Shown piece by piece: positions 4,418 through 22,018 of a stretch of DNA of 49,376 nt. Where the stretch lies: the IMG/VR virus record IMGVR_UViG_2909251562_000001; one strand, 5' to 3'. Within the stretch, counting starts at the first letter, position 1; every line of letters begins with the position of its first letter. The notes below the pieces were generated by a model. It was not told where the DNA came from and searched no databases. It was given only the letters and a program-made list of their open reading frames with translations. The position numbers were made by a program, and so were the translations under genes. The DNA is from a virus (lineage: Duplodnaviria; Heunggongvirae; Uroviricota; Caudoviricetes).

Positions 4418-4469
4418 GGGCGGCAGAGCAGTCACGGAGTAAACTGATACCGCCAAACGCCACCAGAAA
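4418..4469 (-). ncRNA. dicF: DicF-like small regulatory RNA
   Basis: Minus-strand sequence TTTCTGGTGGCGTTTGGCGGTATCAGTTTACTCCGTGACTGCTCTGCCGCCC followed by a T-run closely matches the ~53-nt E. coli DicF sRNA as recalled from memory. Lies in a ~500-bp stretch of the leftward operon with no convincing ORF. Confidence 0.6.
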
Positions 4470-6234: not shown

Positions 6235-6873
6235 TTAAATATCTTGTTGAATTTTAAAGCATACGCCCAATATGCAAGATAGATCATCCAGCATAATTGA
6301 AGGGTAGCGAGGATTCGTGGGGACTAAAAGAATATCCGGCCCTTCTATCTCCAGTTTACGAATGACAGGTGTTGTGGTCCCTTTGGGTAAGGCAAGGACA
6401 ATATTTCCTGGTTGTACGGTTCGATCGGGATCAACAAAAACTGTTGAACCATTTGGGATGGAAACTCCCCCACCAGATGTTGACATACTGTCACTCTCTA
6501 GAACAACTGCAAAGGTATTGGCCGGGATTTCTCCGACAAGCTGCACACAAGAGGTTATTGAGGAATTTTTCATATAATCACTCCAGCTTGCTGCCTGCTG
6601 AAGTGATAGTAGCGGAACCGTTTTTATCGGCGGTAAAGATAGATCAAGCGAATCACCTGTATTTAACTCTCCTCCATTAAGAAGCCAATTTTCGTTTACT
6701 TTCAATATCTTTGCCAGTGAACTTATGTAACGCGAGGACGGCGCTCCTCCACCGTTCATCCATTGACTTACGGAGCCTTTTGATGCGCCAGTGGCATTGA
6801 CAAGGTCTTTGCCTTTCAGGTTTAGCGCATGCATACGTTGGGTTATGCGTTCAGATATTGTTTGCTTGCTCAT
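6235..6873 (-). CDS. CI-type phage repressor (HTH plus S24 LexA-like autopeptidase domain)
   Basis: 212 aa. N-terminal helix-turn-helix region (DLVNATGASKGSVSQWMNGG), C-terminal S24 signature with Ser (LESDSMSTSG) and Lys (VIRKLE). Divergent from the Cro-like gene. Confidence 0.85.
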   Translation of the reverse strand: MSKQTISERITQRMHALNLKGKDLVNATGASKGSVSQWMNGGGAPSSRYISSLAKILKVNENWLLNGGELNTGDSLDLSLPPIKTVPLLSLQQAASWSDYMKNSSITSCVQLVGEIPANTFAVVLESDSMSTSGGGVSIPNGSTVFVDPDRTVQPGNIVLALPKGTTTPVIRKLEIEGPDILLVPTNPRYPSIMLDDLSCILGVCFKIQQDI

Positions 6874-6964: not shown

Positions 6965-7195
6965 ATGAAAAAATCAGAAGTATTAGGCTATTTTGGCGGA
7001 GTTGTTAAAACAGCCGCAGCTCTAGGAACGTCAAAAACCACAGTCAGCATGTGGGGGGAAGAGGTTCCGTGGAAATGGGCGTTGCTAATTCAGGCAGTCA
7101 CTGCCGGGGCGCTCAAATATGAGTTACACATACCGACGGTTGTCATTCCCGGTTCTGATCATAATCCGCCTTCTAACCAAGGGGGGGATTCATGA
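6965..7195 (+). CDS. Cro-like small HTH regulator
   Basis: ATG 6965 preceded by GGAG; about 76 aa; HTH-like stretch LGTSKTTVSMWGEE; divergent from the repressor. Confidence 0.65.
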   Translation: MKKSEVLGYFGGVVKTAAALGTSKTTVSMWGEEVPWKWALLIQAVTAGALKYELHIPTVVIPGSDHNPPSNQGGDS

Positions 7196-7617
7196 AAATC
7201 AAGCATGAACACATCCGCATGGCGATGAATGCCTGGGCGCATCCGGACGGCGAGAAAGTACCGGCTGCAGAGATTACCAAAGCGTATTTCGAGCTGGGAA
7301 TGACGTTCCCGGAACTGTATGACGACAGCCATCCGGAAGCCCTGGCTCGCAATACCCAGAAAATTTTCCGCTGGGTAGAGAAAGACACCCCTGATGCAGT
7401 TGAAAAAATTCAGGCGTTGTTACCAGCGATCGAAAAGGCAATGCCACCTTTGCTGGTGGCCAGAATGCGCAGCCACAGTTCTGCTTATTTTCGGGAGCTG
7501 GTGGAGACGCGGGAGCGACTGGTGAGAGACGCTGATGATTTTGTCGCAGTGGCAATCGCCGGTTTCAATCAGATGAACCGCGGTGGCCCGGCGGGAAATG
7601 CCGTGGTGATGCACTAA
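7192..7617 (+). CDS. YdaT-like / CII-like early protein
   Basis: 141 aa starting MKIKHEHI, as in Rac YdaT-family proteins (recalled). Overlaps the Cro-like stop by 4 nt. Confidence 0.5.
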   Translation: MKIKHEHIRMAMNAWAHPDGEKVPAAEITKAYFELGMTFPELYDDSHPEALARNTQKIFRWVEKDTPDAVEKIQALLPAIEKAMPPLLVARMRSHSSAYFRELVETRERLVRDADDFVAVAIAGFNQMNRGGPAGNAVVMH

Positions 7618-7640
7618 AAGCACGGTGTTCGGAGTTTTTT

Positions 7641-8588
7641 ATGAGCAGCAAGCTTCATGGTCTTGTCTGGGAAGGGTGTGCCTTCACCGGCATGATCTTA
7701 TCCAGGGTGGCAGTTATGGCTCGCCTTGCAGATTACAGCAATGACGAAGGTGTGTCATGGCCTGCAGTGGAGACCATTCGTCGTCAGATTGGGGCAAAGA
7801 GTGAATCAACGGTTAAAGCTGCGATAGCAGAACTGGAAAAGAACGGCTGGCTGACGAAGGAGGAACGTAAGGTCGGTGGGCGTAATGAAAGCAATATCTA
7901 CCGTCTTAATGTGGAAAAACTCGAAGCAGCAGCAGCGGCAGCGCGTGAGGCATATAAACCGAAAAGAAAAATTAGCCAGGCAAAAAATGACCCGTCAAAT
8001 ATTGCCCCCTCAACGGTTAACCCATCAAATTTTGATGGATCAACCGTTGATAAAAAACAGTCGGATAGGGGGGCGATGGTTGGCCCCGATCCGTCAGTAT
8101 TAAAACCTGATCCGTCAGATAAAAGATCTTTTCGTCCGGAAGCTTCGCAACCGGACATGCAGACGGCTGAACAGGATTTTTTAACCCGACACCCTGACGC
8201 GGTTGTGTTCAGTGCGAAAAAACGCCAGTGGGGTAGCCAGGAAGATTTAGCGTGTGCGCAGTGGATCTGGGGGCGAATCGTGAGTCTTTACGAGCAGGCC
8301 GCCAGCGATGATGGCGAGATTTCGCGACCGAAAGAACCCAACTGGACCGCATGGGCCAACGACGTGCGCACAATGCGGATGCTGGATGGCAGAACTCACA
8401 GACAAATTTGTGAAATGTTTGGTCGGGTGCAGCGGGATCCATTTTGGGTAAAAAATATCATGAGTCCGTCAAAGCTTCGCGAAAAATGGGATGAACTGGT
8501 TATCCGCCTGGGGCGTTCGTCTGTACAGCGTTGTGTGAATCATATTTCTGAGCCGGATACCGAAATTCCGCCGGGGTTCAGGGGGTAA
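7641..8588 (+). CDS. putative replication initiation protein
   Basis: 315 aa; N-terminal winged-helix-like region; immediately precedes the DnaC-like loader, the usual initiator-loader pair. Confidence 0.6.
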   Translation: MSSKLHGLVWEGCAFTGMILSRVAVMARLADYSNDEGVSWPAVETIRRQIGAKSESTVKAAIAELEKNGWLTKEERKVGGRNESNIYRLNVEKLEAAAAAAREAYKPKRKISQAKNDPSNIAPSTVNPSNFDGSTVDKKQSDRGAMVGPDPSVLKPDPSDKRSFRPEASQPDMQTAEQDFLTRHPDAVVFSAKKRQWGSQEDLACAQWIWGRIVSLYEQAASDDGEISRPKEPNWTAWANDVRTMRMLDGRTHRQICEMFGRVQRDPFWVKNIMSPSKLREKWDELVIRLGRSSVQRCVNHISEPDTEIPPGFRG

Positions 8589-8594
8589 CGGGCC

Positions 8595-9341
8595 ATGAAA
8601 AATATCGCGGCAGGTGGTGTTCTTGAGCGTATCCGTAAGCTGACCCCGCAGCATGTAATCGCGCCGTACCGGACAGTGGACGAGTGGCGCGAGTGGCAAC
8701 TGGCAGAAGGGCGAAAACGTAGCGAGGAGATCAACCGCCAGAATCGCCAGTTGCGGGTGGAAAAAATCCTGAATCGTTCGGGCATCCAGCCTCTGCACAG
8801 CAAATGCTCGTTTGCGAATTATCAGGTGCAGAACGACGGGCAAAAACACGCGCTGAGCCAGGCAAAATCCATCGCTGACGAACTGATGACCGGGTGCACG
8901 AATTTTGTGTTCAGCGGTAAGCCGGGTACCGGAAAGAACCACCTTGCAGCCGCCATTGGCAATCATCTTCTGGCGAAAGGTCGCAGCGTGATTGTGATAA
9001 CGGTGGCTGATGTGATGCTGGCGTTACACAACAGCTACGACAACAAAAACTCAGGCGAAAAATTTTTACAGGGGTTGTGTGATGTTGACCTGCTTGTCCT
9101 GGATGAAATCGGAATGCAGCGGGATACGCGCAACGAGCAGGTCACGCTGAACCAGATAGTCGACCGCAGAACGGCTTCGATGCGTAGTGTCGGAATGCTG
9201 ACGAACCTTAACCACGTAGCGATGAGTACGCTTCTTGGCGAGCGTGTAATGGACCGCATGGTCATGAACGGTGGTCGCTGGGTGAATTTTAACTGGGAGA
9301 GCTGGCGTTCGAATGTCAGACACCTGAGGGTTGTGAAGTAA
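8595..9341 (+). CDS. DnaC-like helicase loader (IstB-type AAA+ ATPase)
   Basis: Walker A GKPGTGKNHLAAAIG and Walker B LLVLDEIG in a 248-aa protein. Confidence 0.85.
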   Translation: MKNIAAGGVLERIRKLTPQHVIAPYRTVDEWREWQLAEGRKRSEEINRQNRQLRVEKILNRSGIQPLHSKCSFANYQVQNDGQKHALSQAKSIADELMTGCTNFVFSGKPGTGKNHLAAAIGNHLLAKGRSVIVITVADVMLALHNSYDNKNSGEKFLQGLCDVDLLVLDEIGMQRDTRNEQVTLNQIVDRRTASMRSVGMLTNLNHVAMSTLLGERVMDRMVMNGGRWVNFNWESWRSNVRHLRVVK

Positions 9342-9355
9342 TTTCAGGAGGATTT

Positions 9356-9751
9356 ATGGCGAAACCTTTTTCTCTCGAACAGCGGGAAGAGCTGAAGGCA
9401 CGAATTATCGGGTTGGTACGCAAAAATGAACGCATGACGATGTCGCAGCTGGAGAGAGCGACAGGGGCAGGCTGGCACTCGGTCCGACGCTGCCTTGTGG
9501 ATGTGCTGGCTTGTGGCGATTTATACATGTCCGGGGAATACGGTGTTTTTGCATCAGAGCAGGCGTATCGCGTATGGCGTAAGACACCGGAGAAAAGAAC
9601 CGACCTGACACTGATTCGAAAGTTACCAGACGGAGAAATACGCCGCTACGACAGGAGCCAGAACATAATCTGTCGCGAGTGCCGGAAGAGTGAGGTTATG
9701 CAGCGAGTGCTGGCGTTTTATCAGGGTAATTTTCAGGAGGTGATGGCGTGA
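9356..9751 (+). CDS. hypothetical protein (possible winged-helix)
   Basis: 131-aa ORF, good coding context, overlaps the next gene by 4 nt. Confidence 0.55.
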   Translation: MAKPFSLEQREELKARIIGLVRKNERMTMSQLERATGAGWHSVRRCLVDVLACGDLYMSGEYGVFASEQAYRVWRKTPEKRTDLTLIRKLPDGEIRRYDRSQNIICRECRKSEVMQRVLAFYQGNFQEVMA

Positions 9752-10044
9752 GGGTGAGAGTCTATATCGCCGGTCCAATGACCGGGTATAAAAATTTCAA
9801 CCGTGAGGCGTTCCACAATGCGGAAGAGGAACTGAAACGGGAAGGGCATACCGTCTTAAACCCGGCAGTACTTCCGGACGGGCTGACACAGCCGCAGTAC
9901 ATGGATATCTGCATGGCGATGATTCGTTGCGTGGATGCGATTTACATGCTGCAAGGCTGGCAGCGGTCAGCAGGCGCTAAGGCGGAACTGGCGCTGGCGG
10001 AGAAGCTGGGGCATGCAGTTATTTTCCAGGAGGAGGTACAGTGA
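9748..10044 (+). CDS. DUF4406 / nucleoside 2-deoxyribosyltransferase-like protein
   Basis: 98 aa, MRVRVYIAGPMTGY N-terminus typical of this Rossmann-like family (recalled). Confidence 0.55.
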   Translation: MRVRVYIAGPMTGYKNFNREAFHNAEEELKREGHTVLNPAVLPDGLTQPQYMDICMAMIRCVDAIYMLQGWQRSAGAKAELALAEKLGHAVIFQEEVQ

Positions 10045-10325
10045 ATATCGACGCAACAATGACGATTGGTACGGCCCTCAATACGGGGCTGGCGCTTCTT
10101 GGTTGGTGCTACGTCATGTTCTGCTCATGGCGGTGGCTGTCACTGATGTTACTGAAAAAATGGAATAAACGCTGTAAACAGACGCAGCGGCAGAAGGCAA
10201 TGAATGCGTTTTTTGAGACCTTCGATATTGACAGTATGGAGCCAGGAGAGCCAGCTCGCGTGATTAGCAGAGGAGACGTTGTAATTCTTGTATACCGGAG
10301 TGAAGAGAAATATGAGCGAAATTAA
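10041..10325 (+). CDS. small membrane protein
   Basis: 94 aa with a hydrophobic segment (LALLGWCYVMFCSWRWLSLML); overlaps the previous gene by 4 nt. Confidence 0.5.
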   Translation: MNIDATMTIGTALNTGLALLGWCYVMFCSWRWLSLMLLKKWNKRCKQTQRQKAMNAFFETFDIDSMEPGEPARVISRGDVVILVYRSEEKYERN

Positions 10326-10424
10326 CTATCAGGCACTGCGTGAAGAAGAGAAAGCATAATCCAAATCTGAATAATTAAATTCAGCACTGTAAATAAAATT
10401 TAATCCTTAACCGGAGGAGTATCT

Positions 10425-10637
10425 ATGTTAAATACACAAAAAAACATTAACGCGGAAAAATATAACGAGTGGGTGAAAAAATTTTCTGAGCAGATTTTTA
10501 AAATTACTGGCGACGAGAATGCGGCAAAAAGTGAATTAGAACCATGGACACCTGAAGGAGCCAACCCAAATTATTGCTGGTGGGATGTTGATCCAGTTGA
10601 TGCTGCAAATGAAGCCATGAGTTACCACAACGATTAA
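10425..10637 (+). CDS. hypothetical small protein (AT-rich, first gene of the accessory island)
   Basis: 70 aa; GGAGGAG Shine-Dalgarno before the ATG; followed by a GC-rich stem-loop. Confidence 0.55.
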   Translation: MLNTQKNINAEKYNEWVKKFSEQIFKITGDENAAKSELEPWTPEGANPNYCWWDVDPVDAANEAMSYHND

Positions 10638-10646
10638 TGTCAGGAG

Positions 10647-10664
10647 GCCGCCCGAAAGGGCGGC
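10647..10664. terminator. GC-rich stem-loop between convergent genes
   Basis: GCCGCCC-GAAA-GGGCGGC (7-bp stem, GAAA loop) between the stops of 10425..10637 (+) and 10676..11230 (-). No clear U-tract on either strand. Confidence 0.35.
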
Positions 10665-10675
10665 TGTTCCGCTGT

Positions 10676-11230
10676 TCAATTATCTAAAATTGTGCTAAAT
10701 CTTTTTATTACCATTAAGAACGTTATAACAGTGATAAAAAAGGATGCATAGGATAAAAAGCTAACAATATATGCAGGTGCGCGAAAATACCATTTCATTA
10801 AATCTACTGCATTGTCAGGCAGGAAATATATTATCACTGAAAATATAACCAATACTATTGAAGTTAATATTGCATAAGCGACGTTGTGGCATAACTGCTC
10901 ATATATGGTTTTGTTAGTGTTTAATGATATCAATTTGTCTCGGGATTTGTTTCCTTCAATTATGTCTGATATCTTAGTGATGGTTTTTTGTTTTTGTTCA
11001 TAAATCATTATTACTGCACTCATTAATAGTGCTGTTGTAATAGCCCCGAAGTTAACGAAGACGGAAGCAATTGCCGGTTTCATTATTCCGTATGTCCAGC
11101 ACAGAACGAAAGAAAGAGATAACGGAACAATAAAATGTACGATAATGTCGCTCATCAACATTGTTCCACGCTGATCTGACATTGTTTTGTAGTGTTTTAT
11201 TATTACACCCAGCACATTTATTTTATTCAT
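10676..11230 (-). CDS. four-helix integral membrane protein (candidate effector of a two-gene module)
   Basis: 184 aa with four long hydrophobic segments. Its ATG overlaps the upstream gene's stop (ATGA). Very AT-rich. Confidence 0.7.
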   Translation of the reverse strand: MNKINVLGVIIKHYKTMSDQRGTMLMSDIIVHFIVPLSLSFVLCWTYGIMKPAIASVFVNFGAITTALLMSAVIMIYEQKQKTITKISDIIEGNKSRDKLISLNTNKTIYEQLCHNVAYAILTSIVLVIFSVIIYFLPDNAVDLMKWYFRAPAYIVSFLSYASFFITVITFLMVIKRFSTILDN

Positions 11231-12159
11231 ATAATCACCCCTTTGTTTCCGCTATGCAGTTCTAACAATATATCATTAGAAAGGTTTTTTATCGTGTCAT
11301 GAAGTGCTGTTAGATCAGGTATGCCTGTTAATGGGTCGATTTTTAAATCATTATCATCTAACTCTGCGGAAATTCCTTTTTTTAGTATGGTCTCATAATT
11401 GAAAACGACAGTCCGACTGCCGAGTTGTAAGCTTACTTTTATTGCATCACATTTATCTTCAATAATCTCAATGATGTTTCCTATATTCTTGTTTCTTAAA
11501 TCCCTGAAACTTCCGAACATGCCATTGTTTGCTTTTATTATTAAGTCTGTCTTGATGTTTGTTTTGTTTTGACCAAAGGAATCAGCAATGTCTTTTGGTG
11601 CTTTATATCCTTGAGCCTTAATTTGTTTTAATTCGGAATTGAGAATATATTGAGGGATTTTCTTATGATGTAATGGATTGATTCTTGCTTCGAGTTGAAA
11701 TTTGTTTTTTAGATATTCAGTGATAGAATCAGAAAGGACACCTCGAGCAGAAATATTATCGCAAGAGTGGAATGCAATAATTCCTTCTTCAAGGGTGTCT
11801 GGTAGGTATATTAAAATATAACGTTCTTTGAGTGTTACATCATAAGCAGTTGTCCTATAGTGGATTTTTTTGAGTTTTACATCTTTTATTTCACTGCTTT
11901 CTCCATATTTCCCAACTTTTATATAACCATATATAATTTTCTTTGAGTTATCAAAGTGAAGTTTAGCGTGTTGTTCCAGAGATATTTTAGTTTTGGATAC
12001 GCCAAACTCGATAGGGGTGTTTTTATATAGAGTAAAATAATCAACAAAAAGTTCATATGCCGTTTTTTTATTACTTAAACCCAATTCATTAAGTTTTTTG
12101 CTGGCTCGACTGCCTTTATGGGTCAATACGCGGAATGAATAGAAATTAACGCTGTGCAT
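11227..12159 (-). CDS. 310-aa protein of unknown function (candidate sensor/enzyme partner)
   Basis: Long AT-rich ORF, Lys/Ile/Asn-rich, no motif I can recognise by eye; translationally coupled to the downstream membrane protein. Confidence 0.7.
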   Translation of the reverse strand: MHSVNFYSFRVLTHKGSRASKKLNELGLSNKKTAYELFVDYFTLYKNTPIEFGVSKTKISLEQHAKLHFDNSKKIIYGYIKVGKYGESSEIKDVKLKKIHYRTTAYDVTLKERYILIYLPDTLEEGIIAFHSCDNISARGVLSDSITEYLKNKFQLEARINPLHHKKIPQYILNSELKQIKAQGYKAPKDIADSFGQNKTNIKTDLIIKANNGMFGSFRDLRNKNIGNIIEIIEDKCDAIKVSLQLGSRTVVFNYETILKKGISAELDDNDLKIDPLTGIPDLTALHDTIKNLSNDILLELHSGNKGVII

Positions 12160-12585
12160 GAAAAGTCCTTTTGAACATATAGGAGTATACTAGAACATAA
12201 ATAGATGCAATGCATAAAGGAAAAGCTACCGCAGGGCGAACTCACCCACCGATAACTCTTAACTGGTTGTTTGTAAAAGATAATACATAAATTTGGGTCT
12301 GTGTAAAGAGGTAAGCATCGTCAGGGCAAGGGAGATGTGTTAGGCAATATTGGTAAAATTTACGTTGAGGATAAAAACGGTTTGCGGGAAAAGGAGAGTT
12401 AAGTAGAATTGCTGCGGGTGCTTGAGGCTATCTGTCTCAGGCATGAACACCAAAAGGCAGATAGAGAAAAGCCCCAGTTAACATTACGCGTCCTGCAAGA
12501 CGCCTAACATTAATCTGAGGCCCAATCTATGTCTCACAAATGTAGGTTAGCCTCTTACGTGCCGAAAGGCAAGGAGAAGCAGGCT

Positions 12586-12741
12586 ATGAAGCAGCAAAAG
12601 GCGATGTTAATCGCCCTGATCGTCATCTGTTTAACCGTCATAGTGACGGCACTGGTAACGAGGAAAGACCTCTGCGAGGTACGAATCCGAACCGGCCAGA
12701 CGGAGGTCGCTGTCTTCACAGCTTACGAACCTGAGGAGTAA
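12586..12741 (+). CDS. hokD: Hok/Gef-family toxin (HokD/RelF-like)
   Basis: MKQQKAMLIALIVICLTVIVTALVTRKDLCEVRIRTGQTEVAVFTAYEPEE, 51 aa, matches the Hok family signature and E. coli RelF/HokD as recalled. Structured leader upstream. Confidence 0.85.
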   Translation: MKQQKAMLIALIVICLTVIVTALVTRKDLCEVRIRTGQTEVAVFTAYEPEE

Positions 12742-12808
12742 GAGACCAGGCGGGGGCGAAATCCCTCGCCACCTCTGATGTGTCAGGCATCCTCAACGCA
12801 CCCGCACT

Positions 12809-12831
12809 TAACCCGCTTCGGCGGGTTTTTT
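12809..12831 (+). terminator. rho-independent terminator (copy 1 of a 23-bp repeat)
   Basis: TAACCCGCTTCGGCGGGTTTTTT: hairpin plus T-run downstream of hok. Confidence 0.7.
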
Positions 12832-12832
12832 A

Positions 12833-12879
12833 TTGGTTGACAAAATTATGAATATGCACCAATATCTTGGTTGACAAAA
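12833..12879 (+). promoter_or_regulatory. tandem 13-bp direct repeats, each with a TTGACA -35 hexamer
   Basis: TTGGTTGACAAAA at 12833-12845 and again at 12867-12879, just upstream of the cassette's first gene. Confidence 0.4.
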
Positions 12880-12914
12880 GTCGTTTTTTGCACGGATTAG
12901 GCGGAGAAGTGTCT

Positions 12915-13508
12915 ATGCAGAACCATCCATTCCCTTGGGAGTTCTTTCCTGAGTTAACAGAGGAGCGTTTAACCATTATAGCTGAGGAGTTGCTCAGGAT
13001 ACAGGATATTACTCATGAGTTATTGTCATCGCCCTATGATGATAATTACACTCGTGGTGGTTGTACATTTGGGCGTCAGCGGCAGGCGTTGCTACAAATG
13101 TGCGTACGAAAGACATATGACTGGTTAAGACTACTTAATCCTGGCATGGATCTTACGTTTTCAATTGGGAATGTCCCTATTCGTTTCTTTACTGATGACG
13201 CAGATAACCCCAAGAAACGCGGTTTTTTCAAAAGAAATGATGCTGATCGACTCTTTGAGTCAGAGGAGACTACTCCAACTATGCATCGCTTTGTGGTTGA
13301 AAAGCCTGAATTTGAAGGCGAGGGTGGTAGAGTCATTTTTAATGGCTATAACGTGTTTGGTGAGATCGTGTCAACTTGGACATATGGTGCGGACCGTGTT
13401 GTTATGCTGAACTCTGTCGATGATGTACCTCCAGCACCGGTACCTATCGAACTAGAACCTATCAGTGCGTCTAAGACTGAGAAGGAAAAGAAACAAAATA
13501 GCAAATAG
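12915..13508 (+). CDS. 197-aa protein of unknown function (candidate toxin/effector)
   Basis: ATG 12915 preceded by GGCGGAG; no recognisable motif; 10 nt upstream of the XRE/ImmA gene. Confidence 0.6.
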   Translation: MQNHPFPWEFFPELTEERLTIIAEELLRIQDITHELLSSPYDDNYTRGGCTFGRQRQALLQMCVRKTYDWLRLLNPGMDLTFSIGNVPIRFFTDDADNPKKRGFFKRNDADRLFESEETTPTMHRFVVEKPEFEGEGGRVIFNGYNVFGEIVSTWTYGADRVVMLNSVDDVPPAPVPIELEPISASKTEKEKKQNSK

Positions 13509-13518
13509 TGGGTGAAAT

Positions 13519-14640
13519 GTGTTTAACGGTACTAATTTAAGACTTGCTCGTCTGTATCACGAGCTATCTCTGGAGCAGGTTGCTGAGAAGGTTGAAAAAA
13601 CACGCCAGTATGTACAGCGACTGGAGTCTGGTTCAGCTACTCCATCCCCAGAGCTTATAAATAAATTAGCCGAGGTTTTGCGCGTGAAGCCCGCCTTTTT
13701 CGAAGGGCAGGAACATTCTCCTGTTAATGAAGAGATTGTACATTTTCGTAAACGCGCCTCGACAAGGATGTCAACGAAGCTATCAACACTCGCTAAGGCT
13801 GAGTTTTATCGTCGTTTTATTGATGTATTTGAAGATAACCTTAATTTGTCACCTGTTCGATTTCCTGAATTTCGTGTCCATACACAAGAAGATATCGAGC
13901 GAGCGGCAGAAAAATGTCGTATTGAGTGGGGCTTAGGCTTTGGCCCAATTGAAAATATGACTCGCCTTGCCGAGAAACTTGGGGCGTTTGTTACTTCATT
14001 TGACTCCGTTTCGGATGAAGTAGATGCACTGTCTGTTCCTCTACGAAGGCCTTTTATTGTTCGAAATACAGCTAAAAATTCACCTTGTAGGCAACGCTTT
14101 GATATTGCTCATGAGGTTGCCCATTTGATTCTTCATGAAGGAATTTCTACTGGGGATAGATTAACTGAATCCCAGGCAAACCGTTTTGCCTCTGCTCTGT
14201 TGCTTCCCAGAACGTCGATGGCGAAATATTTTCCAAGACCTGTGGGGGGGAGGATAAATTGGCAGGGACTAAGCCAATTTAAGTTGACATGGAAAGTAAG
14301 TAAGGCTGCCATTGTTTACAGGGCTCATCAATTAGGACTTTTGACTGATGAGCAGTACAGAACTGCATTTATGGGGTTGAAACGGAAAGGGGAAGCTATT
14401 GATGAAAAAGAAGATTATCTAATCCCTCATGAGCGTCCTGAGTTATTCCGTCGGGCTTTATCGTTTTTATTTGAAGAGTTAGGATACGACCCACAGCGTA
14501 TAGCTGATGAAATGGATATAGAAGTGGACATTTTTTATGAGTTAGCAGGAGATGATCTTCCTGCGGTTCATGAACTGCCAGGAAGTGGTGATGTTGTTTC
14601 ACTACAATCTTACCGAACTCTTAGAGGCAAAATTCACTAG
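13519..14640 (+). CDS. XRE-family HTH fused to ImmA/IrrE-type zinc metallopeptidase (COG2856-like)
   Basis: N-terminal HTH (LSLEQVAEKVEKTRQYVQRLESG) and HEXXH motif HEVAHLILH in a 373-aa protein. Confidence 0.8.
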   Translation: MFNGTNLRLARLYHELSLEQVAEKVEKTRQYVQRLESGSATPSPELINKLAEVLRVKPAFFEGQEHSPVNEEIVHFRKRASTRMSTKLSTLAKAEFYRRFIDVFEDNLNLSPVRFPEFRVHTQEDIERAAEKCRIEWGLGFGPIENMTRLAEKLGAFVTSFDSVSDEVDALSVPLRRPFIVRNTAKNSPCRQRFDIAHEVAHLILHEGISTGDRLTESQANRFASALLLPRTSMAKYFPRPVGGRINWQGLSQFKLTWKVSKAAIVYRAHQLGLLTDEQYRTAFMGLKRKGEAIDEKEDYLIPHERPELFRRALSFLFEELGYDPQRIADEMDIEVDIFYELAGDDLPAVHELPGSGDVVSLQSYRTLRGKIH

Positions 14641-14643
14641 GCA

Positions 14644-14666
14644 TAACCCGCTTCGGCGGGTTTTTT
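14644..14666 (+). terminator. rho-independent terminator (copy 2 of the 23-bp repeat)
   Basis: Identical TAACCCGCTTCGGCGGGTTTTTT immediately after the XRE/ImmA gene. Confidence 0.7.
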
Positions 14667-14741
14667 GTTTTACGTATTCTGGTTTACAATCTACAGGCCA
14701 GCCTGAACAACTGGCACCTGCTGCGCCAGCAGAGAAAACCG

Positions 14742-15014
14742 ATGGCGCACAATACCAAACATCACAATTCTGATACCGACCTTGCCAGCTGGCACGGGCG
14801 GCGTTCTCATACATTCAAATATGACTGGTACCAGCATGCTCCATGCACTGAAGAACAGGCCGAATGGCTGATTCAGAACTACCGCAGGCGTGGGTACGAC
14901 TTTCAGAAAGACCTCAGCCCTGACTTCCGACACTGGATAATTTCTGTCAGGCTCCCTTATTCCGAACGCCCACCGCGTCCGTCCCGCACATTCCAGCAAC
15001 GCATCTGGAGGTAA
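14742..15014 (+). CDS. hypothetical small protein
   Basis: 90-aa ORF abutting the DUF968 gene (stop and start adjacent); start uncertain. Confidence 0.4.
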   Translation: MAHNTKHHNSDTDLASWHGRRSHTFKYDWYQHAPCTEEQAEWLIQNYRRRGYDFQKDLSPDFRHWIISVRLPYSERPPRPSRTFQQRIWR

Positions 15015-15015
15015 C

Positions 15016-16062
15016 GTGCGGGTATTACTTCGACCTGTTCTGGTGCCGGAACTTGGGGTGGTTATCGTTAAGCCAGGTCGTGAATCCATGCAGGTATTCC
15101 ATAACGGCAGAGTGCTGGTTGAACCGGAGCCAAAAAGCATGCGCGGTCTGCCGTCCGGAGTCGTTCCTGCTGTTCGCCAGCCGCTGGCGGAGGATAAATC
15201 ATTACTGCCATTTTTCAGCGATGAGCGGGTGATTCGTGCTGCTGGTGGTGCTGGTGCATTGTCTGACTGGCTGTTACGCCACGTTAAATCCTGCCAGTGG
15301 CCTCATGGTGACTATCATCACAGTGAAACCGTCATACATCGTTATGGTACCGGCGCAATGGTGTTGTGCTGGCACTGCGACAACCAGCTGCGTGACCAGA
15401 CATCCGAATCACTCGAGCAACTTGCTCATCAAAACCTGTCAGCATGGATGATTGACGTCATACGCCATGCAATGAATGGCACGCAGGAGCGGGAATTATC
15501 GCTGGCTGAATTATCTTGGTGGGCAACCATAAATAACGTAGCGGACGCACTACCGGAGACGGTATTACGTCGTTCGCTGGGATTGCGCGCGGAAAAAATT
15601 CGCTCAGTATACCGCGAGAGCGACATCGTGCCGGGAGAGCAGACTGCCACCAGCATACTGAAGCAGCGCACAAAAAATCTTGCGCCGCTGCCTCACGCCC
15701 ACCAGCAAAACCCGCCACAGGAAAAGACGGTGGTCAGCATTGCTGTTGATCCGGAGTCTCCGGAATCTTTCATGAAACGACCTAAACGTCGCCGCTGGGT
15801 TAACGAGAAATACACACGCTGGGTGAAGACACAGCCGTGTGCGTGTTGTGGTAAGCCAGCCGACGATCCCCATCACCTGATTGGTCATGGTCAGGGCGGA
15901 ATGGGGACAAAATCTCACGATATTTTTACGCTACCGCTGTGTCGGGAGCATCACAACGAGCTTCATGCGGATCCGCTGGCGTTCGAAGAAAAGCATGGTT
16001 CTCAGGTTGATTTAATTTTTCGTTTTCTTGATCACGCCTTTGCAACTGGCGTGCTTGGGTAA
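15016..16062 (+). CDS. DUF968-family phage protein with C-terminal Cys/His (HNH-like) motif
   Basis: 348 aa; C-terminal CACCGKPADDPHHLIGHG...CREHHNELH; resembles Qin YdfU-type proteins (recalled). Confidence 0.65.
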   Translation: MRVLLRPVLVPELGVVIVKPGRESMQVFHNGRVLVEPEPKSMRGLPSGVVPAVRQPLAEDKSLLPFFSDERVIRAAGGAGALSDWLLRHVKSCQWPHGDYHHSETVIHRYGTGAMVLCWHCDNQLRDQTSESLEQLAHQNLSAWMIDVIRHAMNGTQERELSLAELSWWATINNVADALPETVLRRSLGLRAEKIRSVYRESDIVPGEQTATSILKQRTKNLAPLPHAHQQNPPQEKTVVSIAVDPESPESFMKRPKRRRWVNEKYTRWVKTQPCACCGKPADDPHHLIGHGQGGMGTKSHDIFTLPLCREHHNELHADPLAFEEKHGSQVDLIFRFLDHAFATGVLG

Positions 16063-16074
16063 AAGAGGTGACTG

Positions 16075-16434
16075 ATGCTCATAGATTTGGTTTTACCTTA
16101 CCCGCCGACGGTGAACACTTACTGGCGACGCCGTGGCAGCACATATTTTATCTCGGAGGAGGGAAAGCGTTATCGCCGTGATGTGGCGCTTATTGTTCGC
16201 CAGCAGCGACTGAAATTAAAGCTGTCCGGACGGCTGGCGATAAAGGTGATTGCAGAGCCACCGGATAAACGTCGTCGTGACCTGGACAATATCCTGAAAG
16301 CACCACTGGATGCACTGACACATGCGGGGTTGCTTATCGACGACGAGCAGTTTGATGAAATCAATATTGTGCGCGGTCAGCTCGTTCCTGGTGGGCGACT
16401 GGGGATAAAAATCACAGAATTGGGGTGCGCATGA
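16075..16434 (+). CDS. rusA: RusA-family Holliday junction resolvase
   Basis: 119 aa, MLIDLVLPYPPTVNTYW N-terminus and conserved acidic residues (RRDLDNILKAPLDAL). Confidence 0.85.
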   Translation: MLIDLVLPYPPTVNTYWRRRGSTYFISEEGKRYRRDVALIVRQQRLKLKLSGRLAIKVIAEPPDKRRRDLDNILKAPLDALTHAGLLIDDEQFDEINIVRGQLVPGGRLGIKITELGCA

Positions 16435-17120
16435 ATAACCAGTATTTACAGTTTGTGCGTGAGCAGCTCATTATCGCCACCGCTGATTTGAGTGGGGCAA
16501 CAAAAGGTCAGCTTGAAGCCTGGCAGGAGAATGCCATGTTTGATACAGGGCGTTACAGGCGTAAAAAAATCCGGTACCGAGATGAAGTGACCGGAAAAAT
16601 GATTACGCGGGATAATCCACCAATCCCGGGGAAACAATCGCTGGCGAAGGGGACGTCAATTCCTCTGGTCAGTCCGGTTGAGTTTTCGACATCATCGTGG
16701 CGGCGGGCTGTTCTGTCTCTTGAAGAACATCATAAAGCCTGGTTGTTATGGTGTTACAGCGGGAGTATTTGTTGGGAATATCAGATCGCGATAACACAGT
16801 GGGCGTGGAATGAATTTAATACTCAATCCGGTACCAGAAAAATTGCAGGGAAAACGCAGGAACGCCTGAAAAAATTAATCTGGCTGGCGGCGCAGGCAGT
16901 AAAAGCAGAACTTTTTGGTGGGGAAGGTTATGAATACCAGGAGCTGGCATTACTGGCGGGAGTGACAACTAAAAACTGGTCCAAAACATTTACTCGTCAC
17001 TGGGTTGCAATGAAACACATTTTTCACCGACTGGATAGTGAGGCTTTATTGTTTGTAATGAGAACACGTTCAAAACAAAAGGCGGCATTTTCAAAGCAAA
17101 GTGTTGCAAAAGTAGATTGA
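16425..17120 (+). CDS. late-gene antiterminator Q-like protein
   Basis: 231 aa, overlaps the rusA stop; positioned just upstream of a terminator and the lysis genes. Confidence 0.65.
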   Translation: MRMNNQYLQFVREQLIIATADLSGATKGQLEAWQENAMFDTGRYRRKKIRYRDEVTGKMITRDNPPIPGKQSLAKGTSIPLVSPVEFSTSSWRRAVLSLEEHHKAWLLWCYSGSICWEYQIAITQWAWNEFNTQSGTRKIAGKTQERLKKLIWLAAQAVKAELFGGEGYEYQELALLAGVTTKNWSKTFTRHWVAMKHIFHRLDSEALLFVMRTRSKQKAAFSKQSVAKVD

Positions 17121-17330: not shown

Positions 17331-17406
17331 GGCCCTTTAGCTCAGTGGTGAGAGCGAGCGACTCATAATCGCCAGGTCGCTGGTTCAAATCCAGCAAGGG
17401 CCACCA
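17331..17406 (+). tRNA. tRNA with CAU anticodon (Ile2 lysidine-type or Met)
   Basis: 76 nt with encoded CCA; 7-bp acceptor stem GGCCCTT/AAGGGCC; anticodon loop CUCAUAA; closely resembles E. coli ileX as recalled. Confidence 0.85.
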
Positions 17407-17407
17407 A

Positions 17408-17484
17408 CCGTCACCAGTTCATCAGGAAAGAGCGTCAACCCTTTAAGTTGAGTGTGCGAGGTTCGAGTCCCCGGTGGCGGTCCA
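17408..17484 (+). tRNA. atypical tRNA-like gene (anticodon loop CCUUUAA, possibly Lys-UUU)
   Basis: 77 nt ending in CCA; acceptor CCGTCAC/GTGGCGG (one G-U pair); T-arm with TTCGAGT loop; anticodon stem TCAAC/GTTGA. Position 33 is C rather than U and the 5' nucleotide is C. Confidence 0.4.
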
Positions 17485-17486
17485 GT

Positions 17487-17562
<76 letters not shown>

Positions 17563-17565
17563 TAT

Positions 17566-17640
<75 letters not shown>

Positions 17641-19402: not shown

Positions 19403-20974
19403 TTACTGAGAGCTCAGATCAACTTTCCAGGGCAACAGATCGCGTACCCGGTTTGCCGGCCAGTCCTGGATATGTTCAATGACGTAGCGCAGCCACTTTT
19501 CTGGCTCCACATTGTTCAGACGGCATGTGCCGATCAGCGAGTACAACACCGCCGCATGTTCACCACCGCTGTCGGAACCCGCGAACATCCACTTTTTCCG
19601 GCCTACGGCCACTCCCCGTAAGGCGTTCTCTGCGATGTTGTTGTCGATTTCCACCCAGCCATTACTGCAGTACACGTTCAGTGCATCCCACTGTTTCAGC
19701 AGGTATGCGAACGCTTTTGCCGTATCTGAGTGACGCGACAGTGTTTTCATCTGTTGCTGTATCCAGTCATACAGTGACTGCATCAGTGGCGCGGCTCTGG
19801 TTTTTCTTGCCGCCAGACGCTGTTCTGCTGAACAGCCCCGGACCTCTGCCTCGATGGCATACAGTTCACCGATACGCTGCAGGGCTTCCGTGGTGATGTC
19901 GGTGGGCGCTCTTGCATGCACATCGTGGATTTTTCTCCGGGCATGAGCCATACACGCGGCTTCCGTTATTCTGCCGGATTCGTATAACGCCCGGTAACCA
20001 CCGTAAGCATCGGCCTGAAGCACACCGCTGTAACCGGCCAGGTGATTTTGTGGATGGATACCTTTCCGGTCCGGACTGTACGCGAACCAGACCGCCGGGG
20101 GCATCTGTGAACCGGCGTTACGGTCATCACGGACGTAGACCCACAGCCGGGCTGTCCGGGTTTTACCGCTGCCCGGCTCCTGGACCGGGACGGGGATATC
20201 ATCAGCATGGACTTTACCGGGCATCAGCACATACTGGCGCAGGACGTCATACAGCGGCTCCAGTAGTTCAGCAACGGCACCTGTCCAGCGCCCCAGTGTG
20301 GCACGGCTCAGCTCCACACCCTGACGGCGGTATATCTCTGACTGGCGGTATAACGGCAGATGGTCTGCATATTTTCCGGTGACGACATGGGCCAGGAGCC
20401 CCGCTCCGGCATAACTGCGTGCAATGGGTTTTGAAGGTACTGGTGCCTGCACGATATGGTCGCACCGACAACAGGCCAGTTTCGGACGTTGTGTTTCGAT
20501 AACCTTAAAGGCGCTGCTGATAAGCTCCAGTTGCTCTGACACATCACATCCCAGAGAACTGAGTTCACCACCACAGGCAGGACAGCATTCCTCTTCCGGC
20601 CGGATAACCCGGGTTTCACGGGGAAGTGAGGCCGGTAACGGTTTACGGGCTGAAGACTGGCGCAGGGCGGATGGCAGTACCGGGTCATATTGCTCACCCA
20701 GCGTTTCCGCCATTTCTTCCTGAAGTGCGCTGATTCGCTCCTGTGCTTCCTGTATCTGCCGTTCGGTTTTTGCACGAAGTTTTTCTGAGCTTTTACCGAA
20801 CTGCATACGTTGCAGTTTCGCAACCAGCGCCTTCAGCCGGTTGATTTCGGAAGCATAAGCCGCCACCCGCTGTGAGAGCAGGCGGTTGTATTCAGCCATC
20901 TGGCGGATGGTGTCCTGTTGCGTCTGCAACAGTGCCCGCAGGCGGGCGTTCTCATGAGCAAGTGAGGTGTCCAT
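19403..20974 (-). CDS. tnpC: IS66-family transposase TnpC
   Basis: 523 aa with N-terminal coiled-coil/leucine-zipper region, Cys cluster (CPACGG...CRC) and DDE-type core typical of IS66 transposases. Confidence 0.9.
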
Positions 20975-20993
20975 ATCCTCACTTTACAACGGG

Positions 20994-21341
20994 TTATATG
21001 CGGATTCCAGCGCGTTCCGTTCGTTTCGGGTGCTTCCAGTTGATACCTTCAAGAAGCATGGATAACTGAGCCGGAGTAAGGTGCACCTTGCCGTCACGGG
21101 TGACTGGCCAGACGAAGCGGCCCCGCTCCAGGCGTTTGGTGAAGAGGCACAGTCCGTCACTGTCAGCCCACAACACTTTTATCTGGTCACCCCGGCGTCC
21201 GCGGAAGATGAACAGGTGTCCGGAGAACGGGTCATCCTTCAGGACGTTCTGAACTTTTGATGCCAGGCCGTTAAAGCCATTTCGCATATCGGTGATACCT
21301 GCAACCAGCCAGATACGCGAACCTGCAGGGAGAGATATCAT
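20994..21341 (-). CDS. tnpB: IS66 Orf2 (TnpB) accessory protein
   Basis: 115 aa, MISLPAGSRIWLVAGITDMRNGFNGL... matches the conserved IS66 Orf2 family. Confidence 0.85.
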   Translation of the reverse strand: MISLPAGSRIWLVAGITDMRNGFNGLASKVQNVLKDDPFSGHLFIFRGRRGDQIKVLWADSDGLCLFTKRLERGRFVWPVTRDGKVHLTPAQLSMLLEGINWKHPKRTERAGIRI

Positions 21342-22018
21342 CAGTGGCTGCTCCCTTTTATTTCGCGGATAAGTGTCTGTAATAACGCCGGCGTCAGTTT
21401 ACCTTTAAGCCTGAGAGTTCCGGCCGGCAGAACCAGCTCACAACACAGACTGTCGGACGGTGTATTTATCTGCTCTGGTTCCTGTGCGGGGGCCGGGATT
21501 TTATTATCCGGCTCCGGCGTTAACGTCACGGGAAGCAGTGCCGGCATATTTTTTCCGGAAGGCAGCAGGCCACCTTTCCGGTATTGATGGCGCCAGTTGA
21601 AGAGCAGGTTATCGTTGATTCCGTTTTCCCGGGCGATCTGCGCCACACAGGCTCCGGGCTGCAGTGACTGCTCCACTAAGGCGATTTTAAACTCATAAGG
21701 GAAGTTGGGCCGCCGGGGACGTTTTTTTACCACGGGGGCTTCGGATATAACGGTGCTTTCAGGACGTACGACTGGTACCGTGGAAAATTGTCCGTAAAGG
21801 CAGGCATCAAGTTCCTGCTCCGACATGCCTGCGGGCAAAGGCCACGAAAGGCCAGCTCTCCGAAAGCGCACGAACATACTACAAACTGTTGATTTTGGTA
21901 CACCCAGGCGACGCCCGGCCACAACCCGGGGTAAATGTTCTTCAAAGTGAAGACGTAAAGCTTCAGTGATCCAGGTCCGGTGTTTCATACGATAGTGTCC
22001 ATTAAAAATGATGGACAT
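21341..22018 (-). CDS. tnpA: IS66 Orf1 (TnpA-like) accessory protein
   Basis: 225-aa ORF (start may be internal) with HTH-like N-terminus; stop overlaps the Orf2 start. Confidence 0.65.
   Translation of the reverse strand: MSIIFNGHYRMKHRTWITEALRLHFEEHLPRVVAGRRLGVPKSTVCSMFVRFRRAGLSWPLPAGMSEQELDACLYGQFSTVPVVRPESTVISEAPVVKKRPRRPNFPYEFKIALVEQSLQPGACVAQIARENGINDNLLFNWRHQYRKGGLLPSGKNMPALLPVTLTPEPDNKIPAPAQEPEQINTPSDSLCCELVLPAGTLRLKGKLTPALLQTLIREIKGSSH

Follow-up and report, generated by a model that had tools for sequence, protein, structure and literature searches.

In the 49,376-nucleotide (nt) stretch of Caudoviricetes DNA analyzed here (IMG/VR virus record IMGVR_UViG_2909251562_000001; hereafter the window), two adjacent minus-strand genes, A (11227–12159; 310 amino acids, aa) and B (10676–11230; 184 aa), probably form a remote RexAB-type abortive-infection or exclusion pair that a lambdoid prophage carries as a moron with its own transcription. 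We put the probability of this reading at roughly 0.6. RexAB is the oldest known phage-exclusion system, and its mechanism is still unresolved. The product of A is soluble, with no transmembrane (TM) segment, an isoelectric point (pI) of 9.2 and a RexA-like predicted fold, and is a putative cytosolic sensor. The product of B, with four predicted TM helices, is a putative inner-membrane effector. The reading is based on RexA as the top match of the predicted fold of A, on the gene order of rexA and rexB, on the obligate pairing of the two genes, on the contexts of defense cargo in which they occur, and on their location in an AT-rich foreign cassette that is rare in Escherichia coli and swapped for other cargo in related phages. 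An earlier note on this DNA had proposed an abortive-infection or exclusion moron built from a soluble sensor and a membrane effector. This is still the best-supported general reading, but the systems named there for comparison (type I CBASS, Pycsar and Kiwa) did not fit. Rather than an undescribed kind of system, as the note suggested, the pair resembles most closely lambda RexA/RexB, which it did not name, and looks like a remote Rex-like branch missed by annotation tools.

The likeness to rexA-rexB was written down as a hypothesis before any fold search, based on the order of the two genes: a soluble protein of ~310 aa followed by a four-TM protein of ~180 aa, the same order as rexA and then rexB. 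We modeled A using AlphaFold2 with a superfamily alignment of 137 sequences, which gave a mean predicted local distance difference test score (pLDDT) of 89.8 and a predicted template modeling score (pTM) of 0.76. This model superseded an earlier one built on a shallow alignment of 29 sequences (pLDDT 62), in which residues 165–266 were unmodeled. The predicted structure consists of a beta-rich N-terminal domain with two helices (residues 1 to ~164), a central alpha/beta domain with a four-stranded sheet (~170–266) and a long C-terminal helix (283–301). A fold search returned RexA, whose structure is PDB entry 8TWQ, as the top match in the PDB, and the model has the predicted architecture of RexA, that is, a split globular domain with an inserted dimerization domain. 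The fold group of RdgC, IML3-CHL4 and CENP-N scored below RexA and, unlike A/B, is not membrane-coupled and has no phage-exclusion role. A Foldseek search against BFVD returned only uncharacterized phage proteins of 277–322 aa. Among the structural matches to the model of A in BFVD was also a 284-aa protein of Escherichia phage PTXU04 (A0A482MSH0; Foldseek E value 1.2e-4) annotated as "Exonuclease", which may be a wrong annotation or a further diverged relative of A.

At the level of sequence, a weak profile similarity to RexA was detected. Using hhalign, comparisons with single lambda RexA or RexB sequences, or with alignments of four sequences, were not significant. With a RexA alignment enlarged to nine sequences by divergent IMG/VR homologs (down to 44% identity to lambda), the 137-sequence A alignment matched with a P value of 6.8e-4 and a probability of 27%, without secondary-structure scoring. 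The match was colinear over 138 columns (A 103–257 against RexA 84–237) and reached 1–311 against 1–279 at low mact. As controls, 30 column-shuffled alignments gave a minimum P value of 0.045, and a reversed alignment gave 0.31. In this match, LEARINPL of A is paired with VQIEPLM of RexA at the hinge, and DLIIKAN of A with LDIVIKPK of RexA. Lambda RexA and A share ~8–12% identity; A is 31 residues longer, and its conserved GxxxxGxYG stretch of ~13 residues (~76–88) has no RexA counterpart in the profile-profile alignment.

Several results weigh against a RexAB-type pair. The Pfam models PF15969 and PF15968 and the PADLOC models for RexA and RexB matched neither A nor B (E ≤ 1), nor any of the distant family members examined, whereas lambda RexA and RexB, used as a positive control, matched their own Pfam and PADLOC models with E values of 1e-61 to 1e-110 (1e-97 and 9e-110 for RexA in Pfam and PADLOC, respectively). 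In addition, none of the 137 A-family members matched RexA in PADLOC, nor did RexA appear among the Pfam families listed (25 of the 78 weakly matched). Judged by these models, A and B are not formal members of the RexA and RexB sequence families. The recognized RexA family itself looks small, with relatives in 19 of 50,697 phage records. Foldseek against the PDB did not place RexA within the top 50 matches for A, and IML3 came first with a low TM-score; Foldseek was the less sensitive method for this protein. B showed no detectable similarity to RexB (hhalign P values of 0.12–0.4) and has the four-TM topology alone in common with it, which suggests that the B effector may be analogous rather than homologous to RexB. 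Lambda RexB also has four TM segments when analyzed by the same hydropathy method; B differs from it in its greater length (by 40 residues), its conserved cytosolic segment at the N-terminus and its longer central loop. The genetic setting also differs. Lambda rexA and rexB are separated by a 15-nt gap, adjoin cI and are transcribed from PRM, whereas A and B overlap by 4 nt and occupy the opposite strand of the replication-to-nin region, ~3.8 kb from a cI-like gene (6235–6873) and past the replication genes, where co-transcription with the repressor is impossible. Finally, the pI of A-family proteins ranges from 5.2 to 9.5, so that non-specific DNA binding, if it occurs, is perhaps not universal.

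We further analyzed the anatomy of the gene pair. Both open reading frames (ORFs) have exactly the positions, lengths and strand previously described. At this composition, the chance of a 310-codon stop-free frame is estimated from base frequencies at ~1e-10, and full-length homologs of both proteins were found at 28–95% identity. Because a chance frame of this length is improbable and both proteins have full-length homologs, we conclude on sequence grounds that A and B are genuine genes; the RefSeq annotation lists both as hypothetical proteins. On the coding strand, the junction of the two genes reads ...GGGGTGATTATATGAATAAA, with GGG GTG ATT ATA TGA in the frame of A and ATG AAT AAA in the +1 register, and the TGA stop of A and the ATG start of B share the ATGA at 11227–11230 on the minus strand. 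The same 4-nt overlap was found again in many homologous loci. Of the translational coupling proposed in the earlier note, the overlap itself was confirmed, and the coupling is what this overlap suggests. The guanine-cytosine (GC) content is 32.8% in A and 32.4% in B, compared with 51.5% for the whole window, in agreement with the AT-richness noted earlier, and the GC content at third codon positions is 28% and 34%, respectively. In a 300-nt profile, GC content is 0.28–0.36 over the pair and ~0.5 on either side. The flanking genes of the replication region (~7192 to 10637) and of the nin/Q region (12529–17120) are encoded on the plus strand. The pair is thus counter-oriented locally; further minus-strand blocks are present elsewhere in the window. 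A Kyte-Doolittle scan detected no TM segment in A and four in B (residues ~25–43, 58–76, 119–137 and 151–169), the number of hydrophobic helices previously reported.

Neither A nor B had a match in Pfam, NCBIfam or PADLOC (E ≤ 1), which bears out the earlier observation that the 310-aa protein carries no recognizable motif; the PADLOC scan suggested at the time accordingly returned no match for either gene. A profile search of PDB sequences with the A alignment and a literature search on the RefSeq protein accessions and PHROG identifiers were also without result, and PHROGs places A and B in phrog_15676 and phrog_15250, both of unknown function. A word-indexed search retrieved 33 A clusters and 60 B clusters, which come exclusively from Enterobacterales and are all hypothetical. 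Each of the distant B homologs (37–49% identity) was directly preceded, with a 4-nt overlap, by a protein of 306–312 aa, and these upstream partners are A homologs with 28–56% identity, indicating that A and B diverge together. An exhaustive profile search with the A alignment yielded 581 cluster representatives at E ≤ 1e-3, of which 117 also passed E ≤ 1e-10; the majority are 300–320 aa long, so that the A superfamily comprises at least 581 clusters at 50% identity. Ten distant A members gave nothing above chance level in Pfam and PADLOC. In the contigs of four distant A members, each was directly followed by an ORF of 176–201 aa with four predicted TM segments, most with the B motifs LVNFG[AS]IFTALL and IVKRMH. 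A search with the deep A alignment returned only the close clade again.

One genome per GTDB species was scanned with a degenerate nucleotide pattern encoding the B motif VNFG[AS]I[FT]TALL. As a result, 30 loci were obtained, 29 of which are genuine B homologs. All 29 have an A homolog directly upstream on the same strand, including the loci cut at a contig or locus edge, and the arrangement of a soluble protein followed by a four-TM protein was kept in 9 inspected loci as well as in these 29. A-B pairing is obligate. Within Gammaproteobacteria, the motif loci were found in Halomonas, Vreelandella, Alcanivorax, Vibrio, Psychromonas, Pseudomonas, Aeromonas, Alteromonas, Pseudoalteromonas, Acinetobacter, Zobellella, Methyloglobulus, Modicisalibacter and several Enterobacterales. 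Outside this class, they occurred in the Betaproteobacteria (Paludibacterium and a metagenome-assembled genome of Alcaligenaceae) and in one metagenome-assembled genome of Phycisphaerae.

The pair is carried on diverse mobile elements and in defense islands. In this window and in Enterobacter prophages, it occupies the lambdoid replication-to-nin region; elsewhere it lies within the tail module of a myovirus, in a non-prophage chromosomal island of Providencia, or in a P2-like Ogr/Delta region beside an HsdR_N-like gene. Other copies adjoin two GmrSD_N proteins (locus L011, 7566–11254), an AAA_15/AAA_21 ATPase and a DNA methylase (locus L005, 9796–12537), a TIR/SEFIR protein (locus L037, 4310–5746), a P2-type gpD in two Pseudomonas genomes, or the TnsD/TniQ gene of a Tn7-like element. 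A further pair, encoding proteins of 311 aa and 179 aa in genes that overlap by 4 nt, is located between the integrase and repressor C of a Pf-like filamentous prophage of Pseudomonas aeruginosa (OQ658363.1, 2524–3995; also OR863247.1, PfAC16). A Rex-like module is unusual in an inovirus, and the position next to repressor C mirrors that of lambda cI-rexA-rexB, so that the repressor adjacency lacking in our window is present there. As read from individual loci rather than from an enrichment statistic, this distribution is as expected of mobile defense cargo.

The same contexts bear on a different interpretation, in which A is a RexA/RdgC-fold DNA-binding protein that serves the biology of the element itself, such as lysis-lysogeny bias, recombination or replication, with B as its anchor or modulator and defense absent or secondary. 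The RexA/RdgC/IML3 fold of A and its basic pI of 9.2, the pair adjoining repressor C in the Pf-like prophage, and the reported effect of lambda RexA on the CI-Cro switch, which does not depend on RexB (PMC11077077), are all compatible with such a role. However, the pair also occurs outside prophages, namely in the Tn7-like element, in the Providencia island and beside TIR and GmrSD proteins, where there is no lysis-lysogeny switch to bias; numerous unrelated phage backbones carry it at varied positions, and A is never present without B. We therefore consider a role in the element's own biology unlikely.

We next consider the prophage setting. The window represents a lambdoid prophage identical or nearly identical to those of enterotoxigenic-type E. 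coli (strains 504239, TW11681 and E24377A). Megablast matches to Shiga toxin (Stx) phages and other phages stop at ~10663 and restart at ~12363–12369, and together with the composition profile they delimit cassette-specific AT-rich DNA at 10664–12368. Both flanks of this cassette are 90–98% common to Stx and other lambdoid phages without A and B, the left one carrying a 70-aa ORF and a GC-rich hairpin and the right one hok/sok. In phage PhiR42_1, another small gene stands between the conserved flanks in place of A/B. The comparison with related prophages that the earlier note had called for thus showed shared flanks around a replaceable interior. Across 5,426 complete E. coli genomes, the module was found in 22, always as a single chromosomal copy, and no flanking repeats were found around the cassette. 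Based on this rarity, the AT-rich composition and the shared flanks with a different gene in PhiR42_1, the module appears to be cargo that was acquired horizontally and occupies a variable moron site. Of the 22 carrier genomes, that of E. coli DS26-1 has an IS1 transposase inside the A/B region (NZ_CP035879.1, 830819–833078), which may reflect the inactivation of a costly system.

Within and around the cassette, several local elements were identified. A sigma-70-like promoter candidate (TTTACA-16-TATTAT, 10 of 12 matches) lies at 12280–12307 on the minus strand, ~120 nt upstream of the ATG of A, and could allow expression of A/B independently of the rightward operon of the prophage. Because promoter-like sites in the region were no more common than in shuffled sequence, this site is regarded only as a candidate. 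At the other end, a GC-rich hairpin (GCCGCCC-TTTC-GGGCGGC on the minus strand; 10647–10664) is situated between B and the convergent 70-aa ORF and is probably a terminator shared by both, as judged from its sequence and position. It has no U-tract on the strand of B and was not called by the terminator scan, which overall did not exceed shuffled expectation, and it falls within the flank common to phages without the cassette. The 70-aa ORF itself (10425–10637, plus strand) is AT-rich and 90–92% conserved in Stx2 and other phages without A/B, and is therefore not part of the module. Directly upstream of the promoter region of A is a hok/sok-type type I toxin-antitoxin locus (12416–12741, plus strand), with sok at 12416–12591 (118.6 bits, Rfam) and a Hok-family ORF (MKQQKAMLIALIVICLTVIV...); in E24377A, this locus carries the annotation hokD.

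Experimentally studied Rex-like systems provide a frame for these observations. In the P. putida prophage P1, both genes of RexABpp (PP_5643/PP_5644) are needed for defense, and an excess of the RexA-like protein causes membrane permeabilization and growth arrest in a manner dependent on the membrane partner (PMC12894663). We compared this system by termini deduced from primers. The N-terminus of PP_5643 (MHRTATFV) resembles the MH start of the A family, whereas the termini of PP_5644 (MLIGQLANP... and ...LYYLGYKLQE) lack the KINV and KR[FM][SH] motifs of B, suggesting that B and PP_5644 may belong to different membrane-protein families. If RexABpp does belong to the A/B family, A/B would be a new member of an experimentally validated family. 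In actinobacteriophages, Sbash gp30/gp31, CarolAnn and Butters likewise combine a cytoplasmic RexA-like protein with a four-TM partner, are expressed from the prophage and defend against heterotypic phages, and some of these systems, like A/B, vary in how they are oriented to the repressor and how far from it they lie (PMC6426596, PMC11077077). Compared by description, they differ from A/B in their actinobacterial hosts and in being tied to RexA by sequence or domain similarity, for which A has no parallel at the level of hidden Markov models.

These systems also help in judging two further explanations. The pair might be a toxin-antitoxin or addiction module in which A checks a membrane toxin B and the element is stabilized without phage-specific sensing. 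Such a module would agree with the small size of B and the conserved polar residues within its TM helices, with the tight coupling of the genes and the adjoining hok/sok addiction locus, and with the IS1 insertion in the module of one E. coli strain. In RexABpp, however, toxicity through the membrane partner arises from an excess of the RexA-like protein and not from its loss (PMC12894663), and a 310-aa RexA-fold protein upstream of the supposed toxin would be atypical as an antitoxin. We consider an addiction module quite unlikely, noting that toxin-antitoxin-like behavior and abortive infection are not mutually exclusive. Very unlikely, in our view, is a superinfection-exclusion role in which B blocks DNA entry in the manner of Sie or Imm proteins, A is an accessory and infected cells survive. 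A prophage-encoded membrane protein in a moron position is what such a role would predict, but entry blockers do not usually require a cytosolic partner of 310 aa that has a DNA-binding fold, the match to the RexA fold points to intracellular sensing, and Sbash gp30/31 still allows an attacking phage to express its early genes (PMC6426596).

We also analyzed the conserved features of B. Alignments showed a conserved polar motif in TM2 (VNFGAITTALLMSA) and a C-terminal KRFS. Invariant or nearly invariant positions include an M-N-K-I-N segment, H13, D28, H32 and P36 in the N-terminal part, the block VNFG-ITTALLM-A in TM2 followed by Q79 and K80, the residues Y110, C114 and N116 at the start of TM3, and K176-R177-F178 at the C-terminus. 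A conserved polar TM helix of this kind would suit the lining of a channel or pore. Among 32 B homologs, sub-threshold matches were obtained to DUF6419 (9 of 32, best E value 4.7e-4), S_4TM (PF18159; 3 of 32, best E value 0.01) and DUF4231 (PF14015; 3 of 32, best E value 0.088). Weak matches of TM proteins are often compositional, and these are taken as hints only.

One of these hints touches on the comparators named previously, since S_4TM is a SMODS-associated effector. Kiwa consists of a four-TM protein of ~190 aa and a soluble protein of ~310 aa, and the protein sizes of A and B are similar. Together, the sizes and the S_4TM matches are what would favor a Kiwa-like system (four-TM KwaA with KwaB), or a type I CBASS or Pycsar system with a TM effector. 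Neither A nor B matched DUF4868, KwaA or KwaB; for the 137 A members, PADLOC gave no KwaB, and the Pfam families listed did not include DUF4868. Kiwa has the reverse gene order as well: kwaA with its four TM helices precedes kwaB, whereas the soluble protein comes first in A/B. As for type I CBASS and Pycsar, no A-family member matched any CD-NTase or Pycsar cyclase model. Based on the absent defining domains and, for Kiwa, on the gene order, both possibilities are effectively excluded.

If A/B is a RexAB-type pair, its action can be outlined by analogy with lambda RexAB, Sbash gp30/31 and RexABpp, on which the proposed sensing step, A-B interaction, membrane damage and defense phenotype are modeled. 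A would be a cytosolic RexA homolog in which a beta-rich globular domain is followed by a central four-stranded alpha/beta domain, the equivalent of the RexA dimerization domain, and then by a C-terminal helix. It would probably act as a dimer and might sense a cue specific to infection, which could be a phage protein or a protein-DNA intermediate; the E. coli copy may bind DNA, given its pI of 9.2. The ATGA-coupled junction could set a fixed proportion of A to B. Once active, A would cause B to open or to oligomerize into a pore, whereupon the membrane would become depolarized or permeable, ATP would fall, and the infection would be aborted before the release of progeny.

A broader proposal, to which we give slightly less than an even chance, is that A/B represents a large unrecognized Rex-like branch of at least 581 clusters in Gammaproteobacteria, Betaproteobacteria and beyond, combining a RexA-fold sensor with a new family of pore-forming effectors unrelated to RexB, and riding on lambdoid, P2-like, myovirus and filamentous prophages as well as on Tn7-like elements. 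RexAB-type systems are already known as a kind, including the validated remote example from P. putida. The apparent novelty lies in the A/B family, which is large, widespread and missed by Pfam, NCBIfam and PADLOC, and whose membrane partner shows no similarity to RexB. If the broader proposal is true, RexA-type sensors would be modular and far more common than the narrow lambda RexAB family implies, and the 70-year-old Rex/rII exclusion problem would become open to a comparative approach. Even the narrower conclusion that A/B is Rex-like would make a RexA-fold sensor with a four-TM effector a common and overlooked form of defense cargo. It would also provide hundreds of natural variants for studying what RexA-type proteins sense and how the membrane partner is gated, and would improve the annotation of defense islands. 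The copy studied here belongs to prophages of enterotoxigenic E. coli lineages (E24377A, TW11681), and its 1.7-kb cassette is directly clonable.

Finally, several other features were observed in the window. A second low-GC block (~0.43) at 12867–14640 on the plus strand contains two genes, encoding a 213-aa uncharacterized protein and then a 373-aa protein. The latter has an N-terminal XRE-type helix-turn-helix and a HEXXH motif (IAHEVAHLILHEG) and resembles an ImmA/IrrE-type metallopeptidase. The related E24377A prophage has other genes, rem among them, where this block stands, and the block could be a further moron, a regulatory module or a defense module. Three consecutive minus-strand ORFs of 523, 115 and 225 aa (19403–22018) separate the Q/lysis region from the terminase genes as an insertion, with a size pattern that we take to be that of the IS66 family (TnpC/TnpB/TnpA). 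Searches with Rfam at the gathering threshold placed the small RNA DicF at 4418–4468 on the minus strand, near a dicB-like region, and an IS009 RNA at 49130–49333 on the plus strand, near the right end of the window. Rfam also identified three tRNA genes at 17331–17637 on the plus strand; as in Stx-type phages, they lie downstream of the region that encodes the Q antiterminator.

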